Virus record (IMG/VR): IMGVR_UViG_2534682329_000008
Reading direction: 5' to 3' (one strand)
Length of the DNA: 8,918 nt
Origin: a virus
Taxonomy: Duplodnaviria > Heunggongvirae > Uroviricota > Caudoviricetes
Part shown: piece after piece, positions 1 to 8,674 of the stretch
Numbering within the stretch: position 1 is the stretch's first letter
Layout: each line of letters begins with the position of its first letter
Program-made: the position numbers and the translations under genes
The notes under the pieces: generated by a model
Database searches by the model: none
What the model was told of the DNA's origin: nothing
The model's input: only the letters and a program-made list of their open reading frames with translations

Positions 1-336
1 CGCTGGCTGTTTTACGCGTATGACAGGATACGGAGGACAGTTGTGGCGTACGTTTTCGGTGAACGCACTCTGGCCACACTGGAGCGTCTTCTGAGCCTGC
101 TGTCGGCCTTTGAGGTCGTGGTATGGATGACGGATGGCTGGCCGCTGTATGAATCACGCCTGAAGGGAAAGCTGCACGTTATCAGCAAGCGTTACACTCA
201 GCGCATTGAGCGACATAATCTGAATCTGAGACAACATCTGGCAAGGCTGGGACGGAAGTCGCTGTCGTTCTCAAAATCGGTGGAGCTGCATGACAAGGTC
301 ATCGGGCATTATCTGAACATAAAACACTATCAGTAA
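1..336 (+). CDS. insB: IS1 transposase InsB, C-terminal part (5' end truncated by the window edge)
   Basis: Open frame from nt 1 with no in-frame start needed; the ORF-track start at 43 is only an internal GTG. Protein matches the IS1 InsB C-terminus from memory; stop TAA at 334-336. Confidence 0.85.
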
Positions 337-351
337 GTTGGAGTCACTACC
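1..351 (+). mobile_element. IS1 insertion sequence, right-hand ~350 bp (left part lies outside the window)
   Basis: Frame from position 1 translates to the InsB C-terminal region (…RWLFYAYD…VFGERT…[69 protein letters not shown]). The sequence then ends in the characteristic IS1 terminus …AAGTTGGAGTCACTACC at ~340-351. Junction position is uncertain by 1-2 bp. Confidence 0.9.
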
Positions 352-829
352 GTTTTTTCTTCCATGATAATTTAACCCGACTTGACTTTATCTCGCTTTC
401 TTCATTTGCCCTTTGTGCTATAAGTATGGCTTTTATTAATGAATATGGCTCATTCAAAGAGTCAATATTATAGACTGTATTGTCGCAAAGAGTTATAACA
501 TCAATACCGTGATTCAAAATCAATTTCAGACGTTCAATCGCTTCACCGACTTTTTCTCTTGAAAGTCTGTCCAGACTTTCAACTAACAATGTAGTTCCTG
601 GCAATATATAACCATGCTCTATAGCATCTAAAAATTCCGAAAAAGCTCCTGATTGTGCATGCTTTCCTTTGAATGCACTTAATCCTAAATCTTCATATGT
701 TATGGTATCAAGATAATAATCACTATTTACCTTTAACCATTCAGCAATAAGTCTTCTCTGTCGGTTTAATGAGTCGCCAGACATCTGACCTGGTGATGAA
801 AATCGCATATATGCTATGGCTTTTTTCAT
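352..829 (-). pseudogene. ybcK: Large serine recombinase (YbcK-like, DLP12 prophage recombinase), 3'-truncated by the IS1 insertion; only the ~160-aa N-terminal resolvase-type catalytic domain remains
   Basis: Translation MKKAIAYMRFSSPGQMSGDSLNRQRR… is a typical serine-recombinase N-terminus (catalytic Ser in the RFSS motif). The frame runs straight into the IS1 terminus and stops at 347-349 inside IS1. From memory the intact K-12 homologue is ~500 aa. The region is AT-rich. Confidence 0.8.
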
Positions 830-1483: not shown

Positions 1484-1786
1484 TCATTGTGTTCCCATTG
1501 ATGTTCTTTTATATACCCTCAATACCCGTTTCATCGCGGCACTCTGGCGACACTCCTTAAAAATCAGATTCGTGCTCACCTTTCCTTCCCGTTCTTCTCT
1601 GGTAGCGAACCGGTAATACACCGTTCGCCAGACCTTACCATCAACGACCAGGATTCCTGCCCGTGCCATTTTAGCCGCGGCCTGATTTATGCTGGTTACT
1701 GTTGCGCCTGTTAGCGCGGCAACGTCCGGCGCACAGAAGCTATTATGCGTCCCCAGGTAATGAATAATTGCCTCTTTGCCCGTCAT
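1484..1786 (-). CDS. ren: Ren-like protein (lambda ren homologue)
   Basis: MTGKEAIIHYLGTHNSFCAPDVAALTGATVTSINQAAAKMARAG… matches lambda Ren from memory. It sits immediately downstream of P with an ATGA start/stop overlap, as in lambda. Confidence 0.88.
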   Translation of the reverse strand: MTGKEAIIHYLGTHNSFCAPDVAALTGATVTSINQAAAKMARAGILVVDGKVWRTVYYRFATREEREGKVSTNLIFKECRQSAAMKRVLRVYKRTSMGTQ

Positions 1787-2484
1787 ACACTTGCTCCTTT
1801 CAGTCCGAACTTAGCTTTAATTTCTGCGATCTTCGCCAGAGCCTGTGCACGATTTAGAGGTCTACCGCCCATAACAGGAAGTTGTTTTACTGGTTCAGGT
1901 ATCGTCTCACCACGGTTAATTCGCGCTGTCATACAGGTCAGTTCATCGGCAGCCTTGCGCCGTAATTCCGCGTCAGTCAGCGCATTGGCCCGCATGTTCT
2001 GGTACAAGTTGGTAACCAACCAGTAGTGCGCGTTTGATTTCCATGGATAAGACTCTGCGTCCGGATACAGGCCACGCTTCCGGCAATACTCGTAAACCAT
2101 ATCAACCAGCTCGCTGGCGTTTGGCAGCCCGGCGGTAACGGATGTTTCTTCCCGGCACCAGGCAACAAACTGCCCGGGTGATGGCAGGAATGGTCGATTC
2201 TGCCGACGGGCTACGCGCATTCCTGCGTTAACCTGTTCCATTGTGGTGATCCCGTTTTCCCGGAAAGCCAGCACCCACTGGCGGCGGATTTCGTTCAGTT
2301 CGTTCTGGTCCCGGTTAGCCAGGCTCGCCGGGAAAGTTGCCAGTAACTGGCTGAACACACCATTGATGATCTGCGCTACCAGCTGTACCTGCGGCTTTTC
2401 GTCGTACTGTTCCGGCATGTTATTGGCGATCCGACGCATCTGCTCACGGTCAAAGTTAACCATCTGTGCGGCGATGTTTTTCAT
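1783..2484 (-). CDS. P: Replication protein P (DnaB helicase loader), 233 aa
   Basis: MKNIAAQMVNFDREQMRRIANNMPEQYDEKPQVQ…AEIKAKFGLKGASV is near-identical to lambda P from memory, with the same length. Translationally coupled to O (ATGA overlap at 2481-2484). Confidence 0.95.
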   Translation of the reverse strand: MKNIAAQMVNFDREQMRRIANNMPEQYDEKPQVQLVAQIINGVFSQLLATFPASLANRDQNELNEIRRQWVLAFRENGITTMEQVNAGMRVARRQNRPFLPSPGQFVAWCREETSVTAGLPNASELVDMVYEYCRKRGLYPDAESYPWKSNAHYWLVTNLYQNMRANALTDAELRRKAADELTCMTARINRGETIPEPVKQLPVMGGRPLNRAQALAKIAEIKAKFGLKGASV

Positions 2485-3410
2485 AAATCCACCCCATAAA
2501 TCCAGTCAGTGTTTGTCAGGTCGAGTTTTGGTTTGCCGGATGTCACGCCAGCCTGTTGCTTGTTTCGGTTGATTTCGAGCTGGGTCCACTTGTCGCGGAG
2601 TTTGGCCGGACTCAGCACGTTACCGGACCAGAAGTTGTCCTGGCATGCCCAGCGGAACAGCACGCACATGTCGCGGTGGTTACGTCCGTCACGTTCACGC
2701 ATCAGGCGGATATCGTTAGCCCACCCTGCAAAATTCGGTTTTCTGGCTGATGGCGCGATGGTCTTCACCATGTCAAACATCCACTCTGCGGCGGTCAGGT
2801 CTTCTGCTGTCCCCCACTTGCTGCCACTCTGAATTGCAGCATCCGGTTTCACCACAGGAAGGTCGTTTTCTGGCTGGTCAGAGGATTCGCCAGAATTCTC
2901 GGACGAAAAAGGTTTTATATTGTCTTTTGTTAGTTTGTCTTTTGTGTTTACCTGATTCGGGTAAACGCCTTTACCTGATTTGGGTAAACTTTTCTTACCT
3001 GATTCAGGTAAATTTACCTCTTTCAGGTAAACTTTATTTTTCTTACCTGATTCGGGTAATGTTGACCATTCACTGACCACATTATTAATGCCGATATTTC
3101 GCCCGCTCTGAATAAGAATCCCACGCTTTACCAGAACGCTTTTTGCAGCAGAACACTTGTGCGGCAATATCCCGGTCAATTCGGAAAGTTGCTCGTTGCT
3201 CACCCAATCCAGTCTTTTATTAAAGCCATATGTTTTGCGCATGACAGCCAGGAAGACCAGAAGCTGGTGCTGTGTTAATCCGGCCAGCATCACAGCTTCC
3301 AGCAACTCATTTGCAATGCGCGTATAACCATCATCGAGATCTGCCACGCGCGGCTCCTTTTGTGCCGCATCCGGCACTGGAAAATTGAATATCTCAGCAG
3401 TGTTTGCCAT
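2481..3410 (-). CDS. O: Replication initiator protein O (hybrid: non-lambda N-terminal iteron-binding domain, lambda-type C-terminal P-interaction domain)
   Basis: C-terminal ~110 aa (…EDLTAAEWMFDMVKTIAPSARKPNFAGWANDIRLMRERDGRNHRDMCVLFRWACQDNFWSGNVLSPAKLRDKWTQLEINRNKQQAGV…LDLTNTDWIYGVDL) match lambda O from memory. The N-terminal domain is only lambda-like in outline (ADLDDGY…RKTYGFNK). Start chosen at ATG 3410, preceded by a strong SD GGGAGGAATT; the longer track ORF to 3500 is judged an artefact. Iterons lie inside the gene. Confidence 0.9.
   Translation of the reverse strand: MANTAEIFNFPVPDAAQKEPRVADLDDGYTRIANELLEAVMLAGLTQHQLLVFLAVMRKTYGFNKRLDWVSNEQLSELTGILPHKCSAAKSVLVKRGILIQSGRNIGINNVVSEWSTLPESGKKNKVYLKEVNLPESGKKSLPKSGKGVYPNQVNTKDKLTKDNIKPFSSENSGESSDQPENDLPVVKPDAAIQSGSKWGTAEDLTAAEWMFDMVKTIAPSARKPNFAGWANDIRLMRERDGRNHRDMCVLFRWACQDNFWSGNVLSPAKLRDKWTQLEINRNKQQAGVTSGKPKLDLTNTDWIYGVDL
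2921..3070 (-). repeat. Origin of replication (ori-lambda type): five ~18-bp iterons plus an adjacent AT-rich region, embedded in the O coding sequence
   Basis: Five copies of the dyad TTACCTGATTCGGGTAA and variants at ~2958-2976, 2981-2999, 3005-3022, 3024-3042 and 3053-3070. In the O direction they are followed by the AT-rich tract 2921-2957 (GGTTTTATATTGTCTTTTGTTAGTTTGTCTTTTGTG). They encode the repetitive peptide …LPESGKK…LPESGKKSLPKSGK…. Confidence 0.8.
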
Positions 3411-3496
3411 AATTCCTCCCGCAATGAGTGTGTTACGATTTGCACCTGAAAGTCGGTTCTGTTCGCGCAGACCGGCTTTCGCCATTTCCGAACCTG

Positions 3497-4042
3497 TCAT
3501 ATTGCCCCCAGCATGGTGGTGACCATCGCCATCAGTGGACCAGCCAAATCCGGGTCCACACGAAACATCGACACAATGCCTTCACTCATCTCCTTCAGTT
3601 TCTGGTGGCGTGGTGCGTTGAGAATGACAGCCTGTTTTGCCTCACTGAGTTCCTTTTCCATTTCAGCCAGCCGAGCCATGTAGCTATCCTGCTCAACCAG
3701 GTGGCCGCGATATTCCAGCGGTAGTACCGCCAGAATTGCCGGGGTCAGTTCACGCACGTTATTTCGGTATTTTTCAGAATCGAATTTGTTATCGAGGAAG
3801 CGGAACAGCTTCTGGCGTGCACGGCTGACATCATCAGGGAAATCGATGGTGCCGCCGCCCTGCTCCCGATACTCATTCACAATGAGTGCGGCAACAACAT
3901 CCTGATTATCTGCAGCCGACCAGGCGCGAACGGCATCACGGATTTTTTCGTGGCCTGGCGCCTGTTTTGTTTGAGAACGATTTATCACCGCAGTCGGGCT
4001 AAATCCGCTAGTCTGTTGGTATGTAAGTGGTTGCATAGTCAT
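3497..4042 (-). CDS. Hypothetical protein in the cII position, downstream of cro; YdaT-like (my assignment is tentative)
   Basis: 181-aa ORF with no recognisable similarity to lambda CII. Its position between the cro-like gene and O, together with a YdaS-type Cro, is the arrangement seen with YdaT-family proteins in Rac-like prophages. Family assignment is from memory of the architecture only. Confidence 0.55.
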   Translation of the reverse strand: MTMQPLTYQQTSGFSPTAVINRSQTKQAPGHEKIRDAVRAWSAADNQDVVAALIVNEYREQGGGTIDFPDDVSRARQKLFRFLDNKFDSEKYRNNVRELTPAILAVLPLEYRGHLVEQDSYMARLAEMEKELSEAKQAVILNAPRHQKLKEMSEGIVSMFRVDPDLAGPLMAMVTTMLGAI

Positions 4043-4066
4043 TGCCTTATCAGTTAACGCCGCAGT

Positions 4067-4294
4067 TTAGGCGGCAGAATTACTCGCGTTAAACAATGGT
4101 GCGAGGTCGGGACGAATATCTGCTGGTTTAATCTTTCCACCAGTGGCTGAGACAATTTTCATTACATAGCGGGCATCAATTCCGCCACCGTGTAGCCAAC
4201 GCCAAACTGTGGGTTGGGCTACACCGCATAGATCTGCCAGTCGTTTTTGACTACCTGTAATACTGATTGCGAGTTGAATGGTTTGATTTGTCAT
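4067..4294 (-). CDS. Cro-like HTH repressor (YdaS/Cro family), 75 aa
   Basis: HTH motif …GSQKRLADLCGVAQPTVWRWLHGG… and a C-terminal …GGKIKPADIRPDL… typical of the YdaS/Cro-like family. Divergent from the cI-like gene across an operator region. Start taken at ATG 4294, with SD AGGA 8 nt upstream on the minus strand; the track start at 4300 is a TTG two codons upstream. Confidence 0.75.
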   Translation of the reverse strand: MTNQTIQLAISITGSQKRLADLCGVAQPTVWRWLHGGGIDARYVMKIVSATGGKIKPADIRPDLAPLFNASNSAA

Positions 4295-4300
4295 TATCAA

Positions 4301-4404
4301 TTCCTATTGGTATTGCAATGAATAAATAATAGCAATACGTATTAATCCAAGCAATAGCAAAACGTGTTTTGACCATCAATACGCAAGCGTATAAATTAAA
4401 ACTT
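4301..4404. promoter_or_regulatory. OR-like divergent promoter/operator region: PR-like promoter (minus strand) for cro and PRM-like promoter (plus strand) giving a near-leaderless cI mRNA
   Basis: Minus strand: -35 TTGCTT (4349-4354), 17-bp spacer, -10 TATTAT (4326-4331). Plus strand: -35 TTGACC (4369-4374), 15-16 bp spacer, -10 TATAAA/ATAAAT (4390-4396), placing +1 within a few nt of the cI ATG at 4405, which has no SD. The 8-mer AATAGCAA occurs at 4328-4335 and 4353-4360, and ATTGCAAT at 4312-4319. Confidence 0.55.
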
Positions 4405-5097
4405 ATGAAAAAAGAAACTCTTGCTGATCGCTTAAACCTAGCGATGGAACAATCTGGAATGTCTCAAGGCGCTCTTGCAAAGGCGTCTGGCGTAGCTCAA
4501 CCCACAATCTGGAGACTGACAAGCGGCAACGCTCGCGGCTCAACAAAAATTGTTGAAATAGCTAATGCATTGGGTGTTCGAACAGAATGGCTCTCATCAG
4601 GCATAGGCCCGATGAGAAATGACGGTCAACAATCAGGGAAGCCTGCTGTCAGCCATTCAAAATACTTCAAGATTGACGTTCTTGATATAGAAGTGAGTGC
4701 CGGGCCGGGAGTCATCAACCGTGAGTTTGTAGAAGTTCTACGCTCGGTTGAGTACTCGTTTGACGATGCTCGTCACATGTTCGATGGTAGGAAGGCAGAA
4801 AATATCCGCATCATTAACGTACGCGGTGACAGCATGTCAGGAACGATCGAACCAGGTGATCTGCTGTTCGTTGATATCACGGTTAAATCTTTCGACGGTG
4901 ATGGTATCTATGCGTTTCTGTATGACGACACCGCCCATGTAAAGCGCCTGCAAATGATGAAGGATAAGCTACTGGTTATCTCTGATAACAAGAGCTACTC
5001 ACCGTGGGACCCGATCGAGAAAGACGAGATGAACCGGGTATTCATATTCGGTAAGGTTATTGGGAGCATGCCGCAGACGTACAGAAAACACGGATAA
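4405..5097 (+). CDS. cI: cI-like prophage repressor: N-terminal XRE-type HTH plus C-terminal LexA/S24 autopeptidase domain
   Basis: HTH …SQGALAKASGVAQPTIWRLTSG…; a candidate Ala-Gly cleavage site in the linker (EVSAGPG); S24 catalytic motifs …VRGDSMSGTIEPGDLLFVD… (Ser nucleophile) and …AHVKRL… (Lys). Start placed at ATG 4405 (MKKETLADRL…); the track start at 4369 is a TTG that coincides with the promoter -35. Confidence 0.85.
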   Translation: MKKETLADRLNLAMEQSGMSQGALAKASGVAQPTIWRLTSGNARGSTKIVEIANALGVRTEWLSSGIGPMRNDGQQSGKPAVSHSKYFKIDVLDIEVSAGPGVINREFVEVLRSVEYSFDDARHMFDGRKAENIRIINVRGDSMSGTIEPGDLLFVDITVKSFDGDGIYAFLYDDTAHVKRLQMMKDKLLVISDNKSYSPWDPIEKDEMNRVFIFGKVIGSMPQTYRKHG

Positions 5098-5179
5098 TCA
5101 GCCGCGTGTTGATGAGGCTTTTGGGTAATACGCTGAAGAAAATACCTTATAAAAAATAACATTACGGGAAAGGCAAAAA

Positions 5180-5443
5180 ATGAGTAATAAAACACTTGTT
5201 AAAAAATCAAATAACTGTGTCGATGCATACGCCGACGCGTTTGGCTACTCTTCGTTTGGTGACGGCTCTCAGCGCCTAGGTTCAATTTCTTTTTTTCATA
5301 ATGTAACTGAATGGCCTGTTGATGAAAGTGACGATGTTGAGAACATAAAGTACAACATTGCAACCATTAGAATGCCCGAAGAATTGATGCTTAAATTGGC
5401 TGACTTCATTCGCGACCAGCATGACAAAGCTAAAACAAACTAA
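5180..5443 (+). CDS. Hypothetical 87-aa protein, first gene of an immunity-region accessory cassette (moron)
   Basis: ATG with SD (GGGAAAGG) ~6 nt upstream. Markedly AT-rich relative to flanking phage genes. Co-oriented downstream of cI. No family recognised; the C-terminal segment …IATIRMPEELMLKLADFIRDQ… has a beta-strand/helix pattern faintly reminiscent of a ribbon-helix-helix, but is too short to call. Confidence 0.5.
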   Translation: MSNKTLVKKSNNCVDAYADAFGYSSFGDGSQRLGSISFFHNVTEWPVDESDDVENIKYNIATIRMPEELMLKLADFIRDQHDKAKTN

Positions 5444-5455
5444 TCGTAATTAATT

Positions 5456-5899
5456 ATGAAACACGATTATTACGAAGCTCCAAACCTAAATGATAAAATT
5501 GCAAAGGCGGCAAAATCATTTTGTTTGCACTCCAGTGCGTCTTCCCAGCTAGCAGGTATATCTGGAAAAAGATGGGACATGCTACAATCAAGTGGTAGCA
5601 GTGGGTCTGGGAGTGATAACATGCCTGAAAAAGTTGCAAAACTGGAGTCCGATGTTGCTCATATCAAACGAGACGTTGATGAACTTAAAACAGACGTTAA
5701 AGCTATCGACAAAAATATGATAACTATTCTTGCACGTCTGGACTCTATAAAAGAATCCTTAACAAACAAGCCATCAAGTGATGCTGTCGATAGAAAGATT
5801 TCAGACGCAAAGCTTGCGGTATTGCTTGGTGTTCCAGCAATCATCGCTGCAGGAACAGGACTTTATAAGCTATCAATGTACTTTTTCTTTAGTGCTTAA
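5456..5899 (+). CDS. Hypothetical coiled-coil protein with a C-terminal transmembrane anchor (XhlA-like architecture), 147 aa (or 92 aa if translated from the internal ATG at 5621)
   Basis: Heptad-like charged coiled-coil segment (KLESDVAHIKRDVDELKTDVKAIDKNMITILARLDSIKESL), then the hydrophobic stretch LAVLLGVPAIIAAGTGLYKL near the C-terminus. The first ATG at 5456 has no SD, whereas the internal in-frame ATG at 5621 is preceded by GGAG at 5609-5612. AT-rich. Confidence 0.55.
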   Translation: MKHDYYEAPNLNDKIAKAAKSFCLHSSASSQLAGISGKRWDMLQSSGSSGSGSDNMPEKVAKLESDVAHIKRDVDELKTDVKAIDKNMITILARLDSIKESLTNKPSSDAVDRKISDAKLAVLLGVPAIIAAGTGLYKLSMYFFFSA

Positions 5900-5974
5900 G
5901 AAAATGCTCGCACCCTTGCATTAGGTAAAGCGATTTTTCATTCCCCATTACCCTCGCTCTTAACCAATCATCTA

Positions 5975-6003
5975 AACCCGGCCACCGTGCCGGGTTTTCT
6001 TTT
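5975..6003 (+). terminator. Rho-independent terminator ending the cI-orf87-orf147 operon (t_imm analogue)
   Basis: Stem CCCGGC (5977-5982) / GCCGGG (5989-5994), 6-nt loop, followed by TTTTCTTTT (5995-6003). Confidence 0.75.
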
Positions 6004-6089
6004 GCCCTCCCCTCATCACACACCGTTCAAAAAACCACCACGACCTCACTTCAGTTATCGCTATGCGATGCAAGTCACAAAATTAATTC

Positions 6090-6178
6090 TTTTTGCTATC
6101 AAACATTTAATATCAAAACACATCAACTAATAGCAACAAGTATTGATATCACCAATAGCAATAGCTATTATCACCATA
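6090..6178 (+). promoter_or_regulatory. OL/PL-like operator-promoter driving the rightward (plus-strand) early operon towards gam-bet-exo
   Basis: -35 TTGATA (6143-6148), 17-bp spacer, -10 TATTAT (6166-6171). The same AATAGCAA 8-mer as in the OR region occurs at 6129-6136 and 6154-6161, the latter inside the spacer, with a 7/8 inverted copy TTGCTATC at 6093-6100. Confidence 0.55.
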
Positions 6179-6364
6179 TCGCAACAACACAACGATACGG
6201 CAACCACCTGATTCACCGTTGCGATGACCGTTTAGATCCGCAGCTTGAATTTCAGCAGGCTTCGGGGAGTGCGAGGGGTGAAACGGACGCGTGAACGTCG
6301 GTGTGACCAGCTGAAATTAACTCAACATTTCATACCTCAGTCGCTTCAACGAGGCGGCTTAGTT

Positions 6365-6655
6365 ATGACAACCGGCGGCCATCCACCGCCTGAATATGCG
6401 CAGAAGTCTCTATATGTTCAGCAGCCCAGCTTACGGGCAGGAGTTTTTATGGTTCATCAACATTACGGAACGCAGACCGTTAATCGCGGTGCGGTCATGC
6501 CAGGCATGCTGGTCAAACACAAAGATGGTACCTGGACTGCATCAGCTAATTTACGCGGACGGCTTTATCTGCATCGCGGCATCGAGCGCACTTATACCCG
6601 TGATTTGCTCGTGGAAGTTTTTCTCGACGGACGCGGTAACGGCCTCAATCACTAA
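6365..6655 (+). CDS. Hypothetical 96-aa protein between PL and gam (kil/cIII position)
   Basis: ATG 6365 with SD GAGG ~10 nt upstream; stop TAA 6653-6655. No similarity to lambda N, cIII or Kil that I can recognise. The track ORF from a TTG at 6245 is a longer alternative with no SD. Confidence 0.4.
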
Positions 6656-6730
6656 TCCCCTTTCCTGTTTTCCTAATCAGCCTGGCATTTCGCGGGCGAT
6701 ATTTTCACAGCCATTTTCAGGAGTTCAGCC

Positions 6731-7027
6731 ATGAACGCTTATTACATTCAGGATCGTCTTGAGGCTCAGAGCTGGGCGCGTCACTACCAGCAGATCGCCC
6801 GTGAAGAGAAAGAGGCAGAACTGGCAGACGACATGGAAAAAGGCCTGCCCCAGCACCTGTTTGAATCGCTATGCATCGATCATTTGCAACGCCACGGGGC
6901 CAGCAAAAAAGCCATTACCCGTGCATTTGATGACGATGTTGAGTTTCAGGAGCGCATGGCGGAACACATCCGGTACATGGTTGAAACCATTGCTCACCAT
7001 CAGGTTGATATTGATTCAGAGGTATAA
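6731..7027 (+). CDS. gam: Gam, host RecBCD nuclease inhibitor (short 98-aa form)
   Basis: [60 protein letters not shown]…[10 protein letters not shown] is near-identical to the lambda Gam C-terminal 98 aa from memory. SD GGAG ~8 nt upstream. Confidence 0.9.
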
Positions 7028-7032
7028 AACAA

Positions 7033-7818
7033 ATGAGTACTGCACTCGCAACGCTGGCAGGGAAGCTGGCTGAACGTGTCGGCATGGATTCTGTCGACCC
7101 ACAGGAACTGATCACCACTCTTCGCCAGACGGCATTTAAAGGTGATGCCAGCGATGCGCAGTTCATCGCATTGTTGATCGTCGCCAACCAGTACGGCCTT
7201 AATCCGTGGACGAAAGAAATTTACGCCTTCCCTGATAAGCAGAACGGCATCGTTCCGGTGGTGGGCGTTGATGGCTGGTCCCGCATCATCAATGAAAACC
7301 AGCAGTTTGATGGTATGGACTTTGAGCAGGACAATGAATCCTGCACATGCCGGATTTACCGCAAGGACCGTAATCATCAGATCTGCGTTACCGAGTGGAT
7401 GGATGAATGCCGCCGCGAACCATTCAAAACCCGCGAAGGCAGAGAAATCACGGGGCCGTGGCAGTCGCATCCCAAACGGATGTTACGTCATAAAGCCATG
7501 ATTCAGTGTGCCCGTCTGGCCTTCGGATTTGCTGGTATCTATGACAAGGATGAAGCCGAGCGCATTGTCGAAAATACCGCATACACTGCAGAACGTCAGC
7601 CGGAACGCGACATCACTCCGGTTAACGATGAAACCATGCAGGAGATTAACACTCTGCTGATCGCCCTGGATAAAACATGGGATGACGACTTATTGCCGCT
7701 CTGTTCCCAGATATTTCGCCGCAACATTCGTGCATCGTCAGAACTGACACAGGCCGAAGCAGTAAAAGCTCTTGGATTCCTGAAACAGAAAGCCGCAGAG
7801 CAGAAGGTGGCAGCATGA
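7033..7818 (+). CDS. bet: Bet (Red-beta) single-strand annealing recombinase, 261 aa
   Basis: [66 protein letters not shown]… is near-identical to lambda Bet from memory, with the same length. ATGA overlap with exo. Confidence 0.97.
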
Positions 7819-8495
7819 CACCGGACATTATCCTGCAGCGTACCGGGATCGACGTGAGAGCTGTCGAACAGGGGGATGATGCGTGGCACAAATTACGGCT
7901 CGGCGTCATCACCGCTTCAGAAGTTCACAACGTGATAGCAAAGCCCCGCTCAGGAAAGAAGTGGCCTGACATGAAAATGTCCTACTTCCACACCCTGCTG
8001 GCTGAGGTTTGCACCGGTGTGGCTCCGGAAGTTAATGCTAAGGCGCTGGCCTGGGGAAAACAGTACGAGAACGACGCCAGAGCCCTGTTTGAGTTTACTT
8101 CCGGCGTGAATGTTACTGAATCCCCGATCATCTATCGCGACGAAAGTATGCGCACCGCCTGCTCTCCCGATGGTTTATGCAGTGACGGCAACGGCCTTGA
8201 ACTGAAATGCCCGTTTACCTCCCGGGATTTCATGAAATTCCGGCTCGGTGGTTTCGAGGCAATAAAATCGGCTTACATGGCCCAGGTGCAGTACAGCATG
8301 TGGGTGACGCGAAAAGATGCCTGGTACTTTGCCAACTATGACCCGCGTATGAAGCGTGAAGGACTGCATTATGTCGTGGTTGAGCGGGATGAAAAGTACA
8401 TGGCGAGTTTTAACGAGATGGTGCCGGAGTTCATCGAAAAAATGGACGAGGCACTGGCTGAAATTGGTTTTGTATTTGGGGAGCAATGGCGATGA
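7815..8495 (+). CDS. exo: Exo (Red-alpha) 5'-3' dsDNA exonuclease, 226 aa
   Basis: [65 protein letters not shown]… is near-identical to lambda Exo from memory, with the same length. Confidence 0.97.
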
Positions 8496-8674
8496 CGCAT
8501 CCTCACGATAATATCCGGGTAGGCGCGATCACTTTCGTCTACTCCGTTACAAAGCGAGGCTGGGTATTTCCCGGCCTTTCTGTTATCAGAAATCCACTGA
8601 AAGCACAGCGGCTGGCTGAGAAGATAAATAATAAACGGGAGGCGGTATGCACAAAGCATCTCCTGTTGAGTTAA
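8486..8674 (+). CDS. Small early-left ORF (lambda orf61-like hypothetical protein)
   Basis: 62-aa ORF whose start overlaps the exo stop, with SD GGGGAG upstream. Recalled as conserved in lambda immediately distal to exo; function unknown. Confidence 0.55.

Follow-up and report, generated by a model that had tools for sequence, protein, structure and literature searches.

A predicted leaderless transcript for the cI-type repressor of a lambdoid Escherichia coli prophage

Gene content and regulatory sites of the locus

The analysed stretch of DNA (8,918 nt, hereafter the window) is the early region of a lambdoid (lambda-like) prophage of E. coli (Table 1). The left end of the window contains emrE, an IS1 fragment and truncated ybcK. 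According to the comparison with K-12, the cryptic prophage DLP12 is the element of the window lacking positions 2094-8216. The K-12 gene peaD, considered as a remnant of the window cI, was rejected as such; its match is to the 3' portion of P (window 1696-2094). The Rfam scan of the whole window gave no families at threshold, and the search for the HK022/HK75 put RNAs and the HK639 M3-like RNA, which could have explained the missing N gene, gave only chance matches of 8-9 nt.

In the alignment of the repressor, Ser143 is invariant, Lys180 is nearly invariant, and an Ala-Gly pair is found within VSAGPG; these are the residues expected for RecA-stimulated self-cleavage.

Table 1. Genes and predicted regulatory features of the window
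Feature	Position	Strand	Remarks
P	2484 to 1783	-	ORF list and Pfam
O	3500 to 2481	-	ORF list and Pfam
YdaT-family gene, after the cro-position gene	4042 to 3497	-	Pfam PF06254, E=2.4e-29
Cro-position gene, YdaS family	4067..4294	-	Pfam PF15943, E=9.6e-15; SD AGGA, SD energy -4.2
Fourth operator-like site	4299..4314	.	2 mismatches on minus strand, 1 mismatch on plus strand
PR-like promoter	4326..4354	-	-35 TTGCTT (4354 to 4349), 17-nt spacer, -10 TATTAT (4331 to 4326); 9.6 bits, rank 11
OR1-like operator	4328..4343	+	AATAGCAATACGTATT; 0 mismatches; over PR spacer and -10
OR2-like operator	4353..4368	+	AATAGCAAAACGTGTT; 1 mismatch; overlaps PR -35, ends one base before PRM -35
PRM-like -35	4369..4374	+	TTGACC; consensus and position-weight scans; 5/6 bases invariant in five lineages
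OR3-like operator	4378..4393	+	AATACGCAAGCGTATA; 1 mismatch to half-site pattern; inferred assignment
PRM-like -10	4392..4397	+	TAAATT after 17-nt spacer; 12.8 bits; 5/6 bases invariant
Discriminator	4398..4404	+	AAAACTT; 7-nt length fixed; sequence varies except T 4404 (position -1)
Start codon and predicted transcription start	4405..4407	+	ATG; A 4405 at position 8 after -10
cI-type repressor gene	4405..5097	+	230 aa; HTH_3 E=1.8e-6 and Peptidase_S24 E=1.3e-18
Two small ORFs (orf5180, orf5456), then gam, bet, exo	3' of cI	+	ORF list and Pfam
Intrinsic terminator-like hairpin and T-run	5974..5997	+	closes cI operon (cI, orf5180, orf5456)
OL sites	6129-6144, 6154-6169; 6085-6100 (minus strand)		flanking or overlapping the PL-like promoter
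PL-like promoter	6143..6171	+	TTGATA-17-TATTAT; rank 1 in the window

The 16-bp operator motif AATASS-N4-SSTATT recurs at the three OR-like sites, which follow one another with 25-bp spacing, at the fourth operator-like site and at the OL sites. Two motif scans gave 8 matches where 0.94 were expected and 10 where 3.17 were expected. The OR3-like site contains the palindrome ATACGC-AA-GCGTAT, covers the PRM spacer and the first two bases of the -10, and is invariant in one alignment of relatives. The fourth site is located between the predicted PR start and the cro start codon and overlaps the cro ribosome-binding site.

In silico, divergent PR and PRM are placed back to back in a short intergenic region, with three tandem putative operators, the third of them over PRM, and with related sites at the predicted PL. 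Together, the putative operators, PR and PL/OL form a lambda-like layout. The preliminary description had proposed that the regulatory architecture is conserved despite different operators and a different repressor, and the divergent PR/PRM pair, the three operators and the matching OL/PL agree with this.

Promoter and predicted start of the cI transcript

Upstream of cI, TTGACC-17-TAAATT is the sole consensus match on either strand in the interval 3900-5300, although the number of such matches is not above chance (1 found, 2.5 expected from shuffles). What exceeds chance is its strength and its location. When the entire window was scanned on both strands with position weights, it scored 12.81 bits and took rank 2 among 88,780 configurations; only about 0.02% of null positions have an equally good promoter whose -10 ends 6-7 nt upstream of them. 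The next-best plus-strand candidate in the cI-cro intergenic region reuses the TTGACC -35, combined with TATAAA (4390-4395) over a 15-nt spacer, and reaches 6.35 bits, and no other plus-strand promoter above about 6.3 bits was detected in 4280-4400 by the same scan. TTGACC-17-TAAATT is the strongest plus-strand promoter of the cI-cro intergenic region, as had been noticed earlier for its -35. The -10 had been sought around 4390-4396; a -10 is present there, but the difference between 12.81 bits for TAAATT and 6.35 bits for TATAAA places the best one slightly to the right, at 4392-4397.

The same operator-promoter-repressor module was found in the E. coli phages PhiR70_1, 4A7 and Perceval, in the Salmonella P22-like phages ST104, ST160, SE1 and BTP1, in Klebsiella phages and, more distantly, in Yersinia phages. 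A single match covering at least 80% of the cI-cro region is present in 719 of 5,426 complete E. coli genomes. Across five lineages (E. coli, Salmonella ST104, BTP1, Klebsiella and Yersinia), five of the six bases are invariant in each of the two hexamers, the -10 of the Yersinia phage being TAGATT. In the discriminator only one base of seven, the T at -1, is invariant, yet its length is always 7 nt, with zero indels; TT before the ATG is retained in four of the five lineages, and the Yersinia relative has G at position 6 after the -10. Hexamers that are conserved, a discriminator free to change and a fixed spacing together mark a functional promoter for which the distance to the ATG is important. 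In a set of 25 E. coli haplotypes, variation was seen at 19 of 74 sites upstream of the -35 and at 2 of 36 sites in the stretch running from the -35 up to the ATG (Fisher p = 0.011). The haplotype variation set, 80 viral-contig loci with 100% identical cI, was useless for deep footprinting, and the deep comparison drew on individual phage records.

The 20 nt before ATG 4405 have an anti-SD duplex energy of -0.1 kcal/mol, that is, the SD is absent, as the preliminary description had stated, whereas energies of -3.8 to -10.3 kcal/mol were obtained for 13 of the 14 other genes of the window (the exception is orf5456, +0.6). Internal ATG codons of cI are likewise without a usable site. The Pfam HTH models start at repressor residues 6-13, so a start at an internal ATG would cut helix 1.

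The TAAATT hexamer ends 7 nt before ATG 4405, and positions 6-9 after it are T, T, A and T. Transcription start sites are used at positions 6, 7, 8 and 9 after the -10 in 8, 55, 29 and 7% of cases, respectively, and purines at +1 and pyrimidines at -1 are strongly preferred (PMC5730371). A 4405 is the predicted start because it is the sole purine at positions 6-9 and follows a T. It occupies position 8, the modal position being 7, which in itself counts against a leaderless start. With a strong promoter immediately upstream of cI, the cI mRNA is very likely to begin with the AUG start codon; a start within a few nucleotides of the cI ATG, proposed earlier, is likewise what the -10 spacing and the sole purine predict. 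In a transcript starting at 4405, nucleotides 1-7 are predicted to be unpaired with a probability of at least 0.99, leaving the 5' AUG open. PMC8459731 names three determinants of leaderless initiation: AUG identity, zero leader and accessibility of the start codon. The cI gene combines an AUG start codon, the absence of an SD and an accessible 5' end. All in-silico tests that could be applied support the leaderless interpretation. It is therefore likely, judging from the sequence, that the cI mRNA is leaderless and truly starts at A 4405; as the start site for the window sequence is a predicted one, this verdict rests on prediction and comparison.

Accordingly worded as a model, region 4369-4397 would serve a lambdoid prophage as its maintenance promoter, equivalent to PRM. 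RNA polymerase with sigma-70 would bind TTGACC and TAAATT and start at A 4405, so that the cI mRNA would begin with pppAUG, with neither a 5' untranslated region nor an SD. As in the case of lambda cI, ribosomes would directly recognise the AUG at the 5' end, and the product would be the 230-aa HTH + S24 repressor. The repressor would act on the 16-bp operators: bound to OR1 and OR2, it would shut PR, from which the YdaS-type cro and the YdaT-type gene would be read; OR2 would adjoin the PRM -35, and OR3, lying over the PRM spacer and -10, would give negative autoregulation. TTG 4369 would be promoter sequence and not a start codon. We infer at which nucleotide transcription starts, how the mRNA is translated and which protein binds to which operator.

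Two other origins of the transcript were weighed. The same promoter could fire 1-5 nt further upstream, at A 4400/4401 or T 4403/4404; the leader would then be very short and SD-less, and translation less efficient than from a true 5'-terminal AUG. This is unlikely, although several features point in its direction: purine-rich discriminators move starts upstream and start choice is spread over positions 6-9 (PMC5730371), the discriminator here begins with a purine-rich AAA that would favour starts further upstream, the Yersinia relative has its G at position 6, and the alternative -10 TATAAA, at 6.35 bits, would place A 4401 at position 6. However, the TATAAA reading needs the 15-nt spacer and is without the T at -7; pyrimidines, strongly disfavoured as starts, occupy both position 6 and position 7 downstream of TAAATT; and the TT before the ATG is kept in most lineages. 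Still less probable is that most cI is translated independently of an SD from longer transcripts, originating at a PRE-type promoter in or near cro/ydaT or at a weak upstream promoter, with 4369-4397 contributing little. The AU-rich, unstructured UAUAAAUUAAAACUU before AUG 4405 would help internal initiation on such leadered transcripts, racR with its three promoters is a precedent for additional upstream promoters (PMC9638921), and a PRE933P-gfp reporter plasmid was built for the related CP-933P switch (PMC8630535). Against this stand the lack of any other plus-strand promoter above 6.3 bits in 4280-4400, the single start site reported for cI-bstA in the lysogen of BTP1, which has the same region (PMC7067206), and the strong conservation of the hexamers, which would stay unexplained. 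The leadered route is probably additional during establishment and not a replacement. In lambda, a leadered cI mRNA is made from PRE during establishment.

Very improbable is translation from TTG 4369, which opens the six-frame ORF and at the same time forms the first half of the -35 hexamer; it would yield a 242-aa repressor, as annotated for BTP1 cI (STMMW_03541) from the equivalent TTG, and TTGACC would be coding sequence. The frame is open from 4369 to ATG 4405 in all relatives, in which neither in-frame stops nor frameshifts were found between the two codons (the Yersinia phage has the only indel seen, and this is located upstream of the -35), so stop codons do not exclude the longer product. 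On the other hand, TTG is a weak start codon, it has no SD (+0.2 kcal/mol), and its transcript would need a promoter further upstream, where none was found. Non-AUG start codons function poorly without a leader. As read from the alignment of the window with the Yersinia phage, the 12-codon extension has 4 of 11 amino acids identical and the next 17 residues about 11 of 17, and the conserved bases within the extension are those of the promoter hexamers. The N-termini of heteroimmune homologues with unrelated upstream DNA align at ATG 4405 with the pattern M-(K/N)-x-(T)-(L/F)-(A/S)-(D/E)-R-L, including a Mannheimia homologue whose start is defined by an AAGGAG site, and PGAP annotates the window-type repressor from the ATG. 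TTG 4369 is thus better read as a part of the -35 than as a start codon, and the earlier view of this codon is favoured by the same set of evidence (SD absent, non-AUG codon, poorly conserved extension, homologues aligned at the ATG).

Repressor starts in related and known systems

Promoter-to-ATG geometry was calibrated on 20 repressor starts from about 13 lineages, the score being that of the best promoter with a -10 ending 6-7 nt before the ATG, against a null of about 20,000 positions from the same loci. Starts proven to be leaderless by experimental start sites scored 9.65 (lambda cI), 8.85 (paaR2) and 6.06 bits (racR); the window family scored 13.31 bits (null p = 0.0002). Heteroimmune homologues without an SD (HK639, SH2026Stx1, PhiR5_1, HK022 type and LMessi) scored 10.6-11.9 bits, with anti-SD energies of -3.0 or weaker, and homologues with an evident SD (Stx2_EH2201, Mannheimia 1152AP and ASU11) scored from -4.6 to 0.6 bits, with SD energies from -4.3 to -9.5. 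The group SfII / ST64B / Kp4872, with 6.6 bits, is ambiguous and was left unclassified; in this group TGTAAT is conserved exactly 6 nt upstream of the ATG, but G occupies -11, the critical position. The sampled genes form two clean classes, having either a good promoter 6-7 nt before the ATG and no SD, or an SD and no such promoter. By these scores, the repressor family splits into a leaderless-type class and an SD-led class, with the window as the clearest example of the leaderless type.

A leaderless mRNA of a prophage repressor is an ordinary, already documented design. The cI mRNA of phage lambda is leaderless. The window resembles lambda in the divergent PR/PRM, with start sites 83 bp apart in lambda and about 86 bp apart, as predicted, in the window; in three tandem operators, the third over PRM; in the short distance from the end of the -10 to the ATG, 6 nt in lambda and 7 nt in the window, with no functional SD; in a repressor consisting of HTH and S24 self-cleavage domains; and in OL/PL lying beyond the cI operon, accessory genes separating cI from PL. 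It differs from lambda in the sequence of the operators, AATASS-N4-SSTATT being unrelated; in the repressor, about 24% identical to lambda CI; in the PRM -35, which is near-consensus TTGACC in the window and TAGATA in lambda (13.3 versus 9.65 bits); in the centre of OR2, at about -44 versus -42; in the YdaS- and YdaT-family proteins holding the positions of Cro and CII; and in the fourth operator-like site over the cro ribosome-binding site. Since the PRM -35 is near consensus, unlike the weak PRM of lambda, dependence on activation may differ, and activation of PRM by OR2-bound repressor may be dispensable.

In the PaaR2-YdaS-YdaT system of CP-933P (E. coli O157:H7), the leaderless paaR2 transcript was established by 5' RACE and N-terminal sequencing (PMC8630535). 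This system shares with the window a rightward operon of the YdaS/YdaT families and a short divergent PR/PRM region, and the paaR2 geometry TTGCTT-17-GATAAT-6-ATG is like the promoter-to-ATG spacing of the window. PaaR2 differs in being a 123-aa HTH protein without an S24 domain, and paaR2 heads a toxin-antitoxin operon. In the Rac prophage of K-12, a leaderless racR transcript from PracR3, the strongest of three promoters, was shown by primer extension and promoter mutagenesis (PMC9638921); the geometry of PracR3 is GAATAT-6-ATG. The cro-position gene of the window is 32% identical to YdaS (E=5e-9), and the ydaT-like gene 35% identical to YdaT (E=3e-11); the YdaS-family gene in the cro position followed by the YdaT-family gene is the order of RacR/PaaR2-type loci. 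RacR differs in the absence of the S24 domain, and racR in having three promoters. BLASTP of the window repressor against PaaR2 and RacR gave no similarity, so homology of the repressors was not found.

The phages BTP1, ST104, ST160 and SE1 have the same immunity type as the window: at the nucleotide level their operators, PRM and 5' portion of cI are 78-80% identical to it, the repressor is 86% identical, and the arrangement TTGACC-17-TAAATT-7-ATG is the same. In BTP1, as in the window, an accessory gene (bstA) follows cI in the same operon. These phages differ in P22-like virion modules and in the sequence on the Cro side. The cI-bstA operon of BTP1 is reported to be highly expressed and to have a single dRNA-seq start site (PMC7067206); the available text and supplements of PMC7067206, PMC6333337, PMC5856525 (with its bioRxiv version) and PMC8585504 give no coordinate for the cI start site. 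The leaderless reading predicts this start at FN424405 379527 (minus strand), the A of ATGAAAAAAGAAAC, 36 nt inside the annotated CDS.

Beyond these phages, the CI and Cro mRNAs of the telomere phage PY54 are documented as leaderless, that of cI by RACE (PMC4488713), and setR of SXT is called leaderless in a review (PMC4542580). SetR of the SXT/R391 ICEs and PY54 CI share with the window repressor the cI-type role and have an mRNA reported to be leaderless, and SetR also has the same pair of HTH_3 and Peptidase_S24; both differ in belonging to other elements with other operators.

Implications for repressor annotation and prophage immunity

The main practical value of the result is the correction of start codons across a widespread immunity group, in which the promoter-to-ATG rule picks the correct start. 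Among the repressor records examined, five deviate from it: those of BTP1, PhiR5_1 and the Yersinia phage with an extended start, and those of Klebsiella phage 6 LV-2017 and SH2026Stx1 with a truncated one. If the two-class split is general, the same rule could correct many repressor start codons. The chances are about even that leaderless expression is the majority design among enterobacterial HTH + S24 cI-type repressors and not a peculiarity of lambda. For the present locus, a textbook design is extended to one more immunity group, and no new question is opened.

This immunity type is common in E. coli and is shared by BTP1, a prophage that undergoes spontaneous induction in epidemic African Salmonella ST313, so the amount of repressor bears on prophage stability. 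Translation of leaderless mRNAs is inefficient and differs in its response to stress and initiation factors. It is relevant to repressor levels and induction thresholds and, if the leaderless reading is true, the near-consensus, probably activator-independent PRM of the window would be a strong promoter throttled at translation, another balance than the weak, activated PRM of lambda.

Relationship to DLP12 and distribution in Escherichia coli

Comparison with the DLP12 locus of K-12 (L147) showed that positions 347-2094 and 8216-8521 of the window are 97-99.7% identical to this cryptic prophage, and the exoD/peaD junction of K-12 corresponds to about positions 8216 and 2094. From this junction, DLP12 is read as a deleted version of the window prophage: it looks like the same prophage minus the entire immunity and recombination region (2094-8216). 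The segment absent from DLP12 comprises the 5' part of P, the genes O, ydaT, cro and cI, PL, the genes gam and bet, and the 5' part of exo. Judging by the alignment, the K-12 gene peaD is a leftover of P; its interpretation as the remnant of a peptidase-type repressor was rejected. At the left end, similarity to K-12 ybcK ends at position 347, and the ybcK gene of the window strain was apparently cut by insertion of IS1.

The cI-cro region (4060-5100) has a partial match in 2,213 of the 5,426 complete E. coli genomes, but one single match spanning at least 80% of it is present in only 719 of the 5,426, leaving roughly 1,500 genomes with a partial match and no such single match.

Features of the window and annotated repressor starts of related phages (positions are those of the respective sequence)
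Feature	Sequence	Position	Remark
IS1 InsB-like ORF, C-terminal part	window	43-336	adjoins shortened ybcK-type recombinase gene
ybcK-type recombinase gene	window	347-829	truncated
Fourth operator-like site	window	4299-4314	1-2 mismatches to operator pattern
Small ORF orf5180	window	5180-5443	between cI and terminator 5974-5997
Small ORF orf5456	window	5456-5899	between cI and terminator 5974-5997
Annotated repressor start	BTP1 (L138)	1570	another ATG indicated
Annotated repressor start	Yersinia phage (L139)	1210	another ATG indicated
Annotated repressor start	PhiR5_1 (L086)	1132	another ATG indicated
Annotated repressor start	Klebsiella phage 6 LV-2017 (L003)	2013	another ATG indicated
Annotated repressor start	SH2026Stx1 (L145)	736	another ATG indicated

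Early region on both sides of the repressor gene

The fourth operator-like site, 29 bp from OR1, lies over the cro ribosome-binding site, downstream of the start predicted for PR. Lambda has no equivalent of it, while HK022-type phages possess an additional site, OFR, yet on the far side of cro.

No significant Pfam match was found for either orf5180 or orf5456; the latter lacks a Shine-Dalgarno sequence (+0.6 kcal/mol) and ends C-terminally in a hydrophobic stretch. The position of these ORFs, the 'moron' slot, is occupied by rexAB in lambda and by bstA in BTP1, and its cargo varies among related phages (HipA-like genes in PhiR5_1, for example).

In the interval from the PL candidate to gam (6172-6730), no recognisable N gene was found, and the 136-aa ORF at 6245-6655 has no Pfam match; the sole PGAP annotation in this interval of a 99.9% identical genome is a kil-like 'cell division inhibitor'. 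An Rfam search of the window gave zero family matches, and no similarity to the HK022 put RNAs or the HK639 M3-like RNA was detected in it.

Upstream motif and start of the repressor gene

The motif ATGTAAT is conserved just upstream of cI in three heteroimmune phages, namely, SfII, ST64B and Kp4872; in these, TGTAAT is separated from the ATG of the repressor gene by exactly 6 nt and carries G at the -11 position. This position of the -10 element is normally essential. TGTAAT might represent an unusual -10 element for a leaderless transcript.

The repressor starts annotated in the public records of BTP1, the Yersinia phage, PhiR5_1, Klebsiella phage 6 LV-2017 and SH2026Stx1 either reach upstream into the promoter/operator region or cut into the HTH domain, and alignment together with promoter geometry indicates another ATG as the probable start in each. 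Such annotated starts look like a systematic fault of gene callers for genes without a Shine-Dalgarno sequence.
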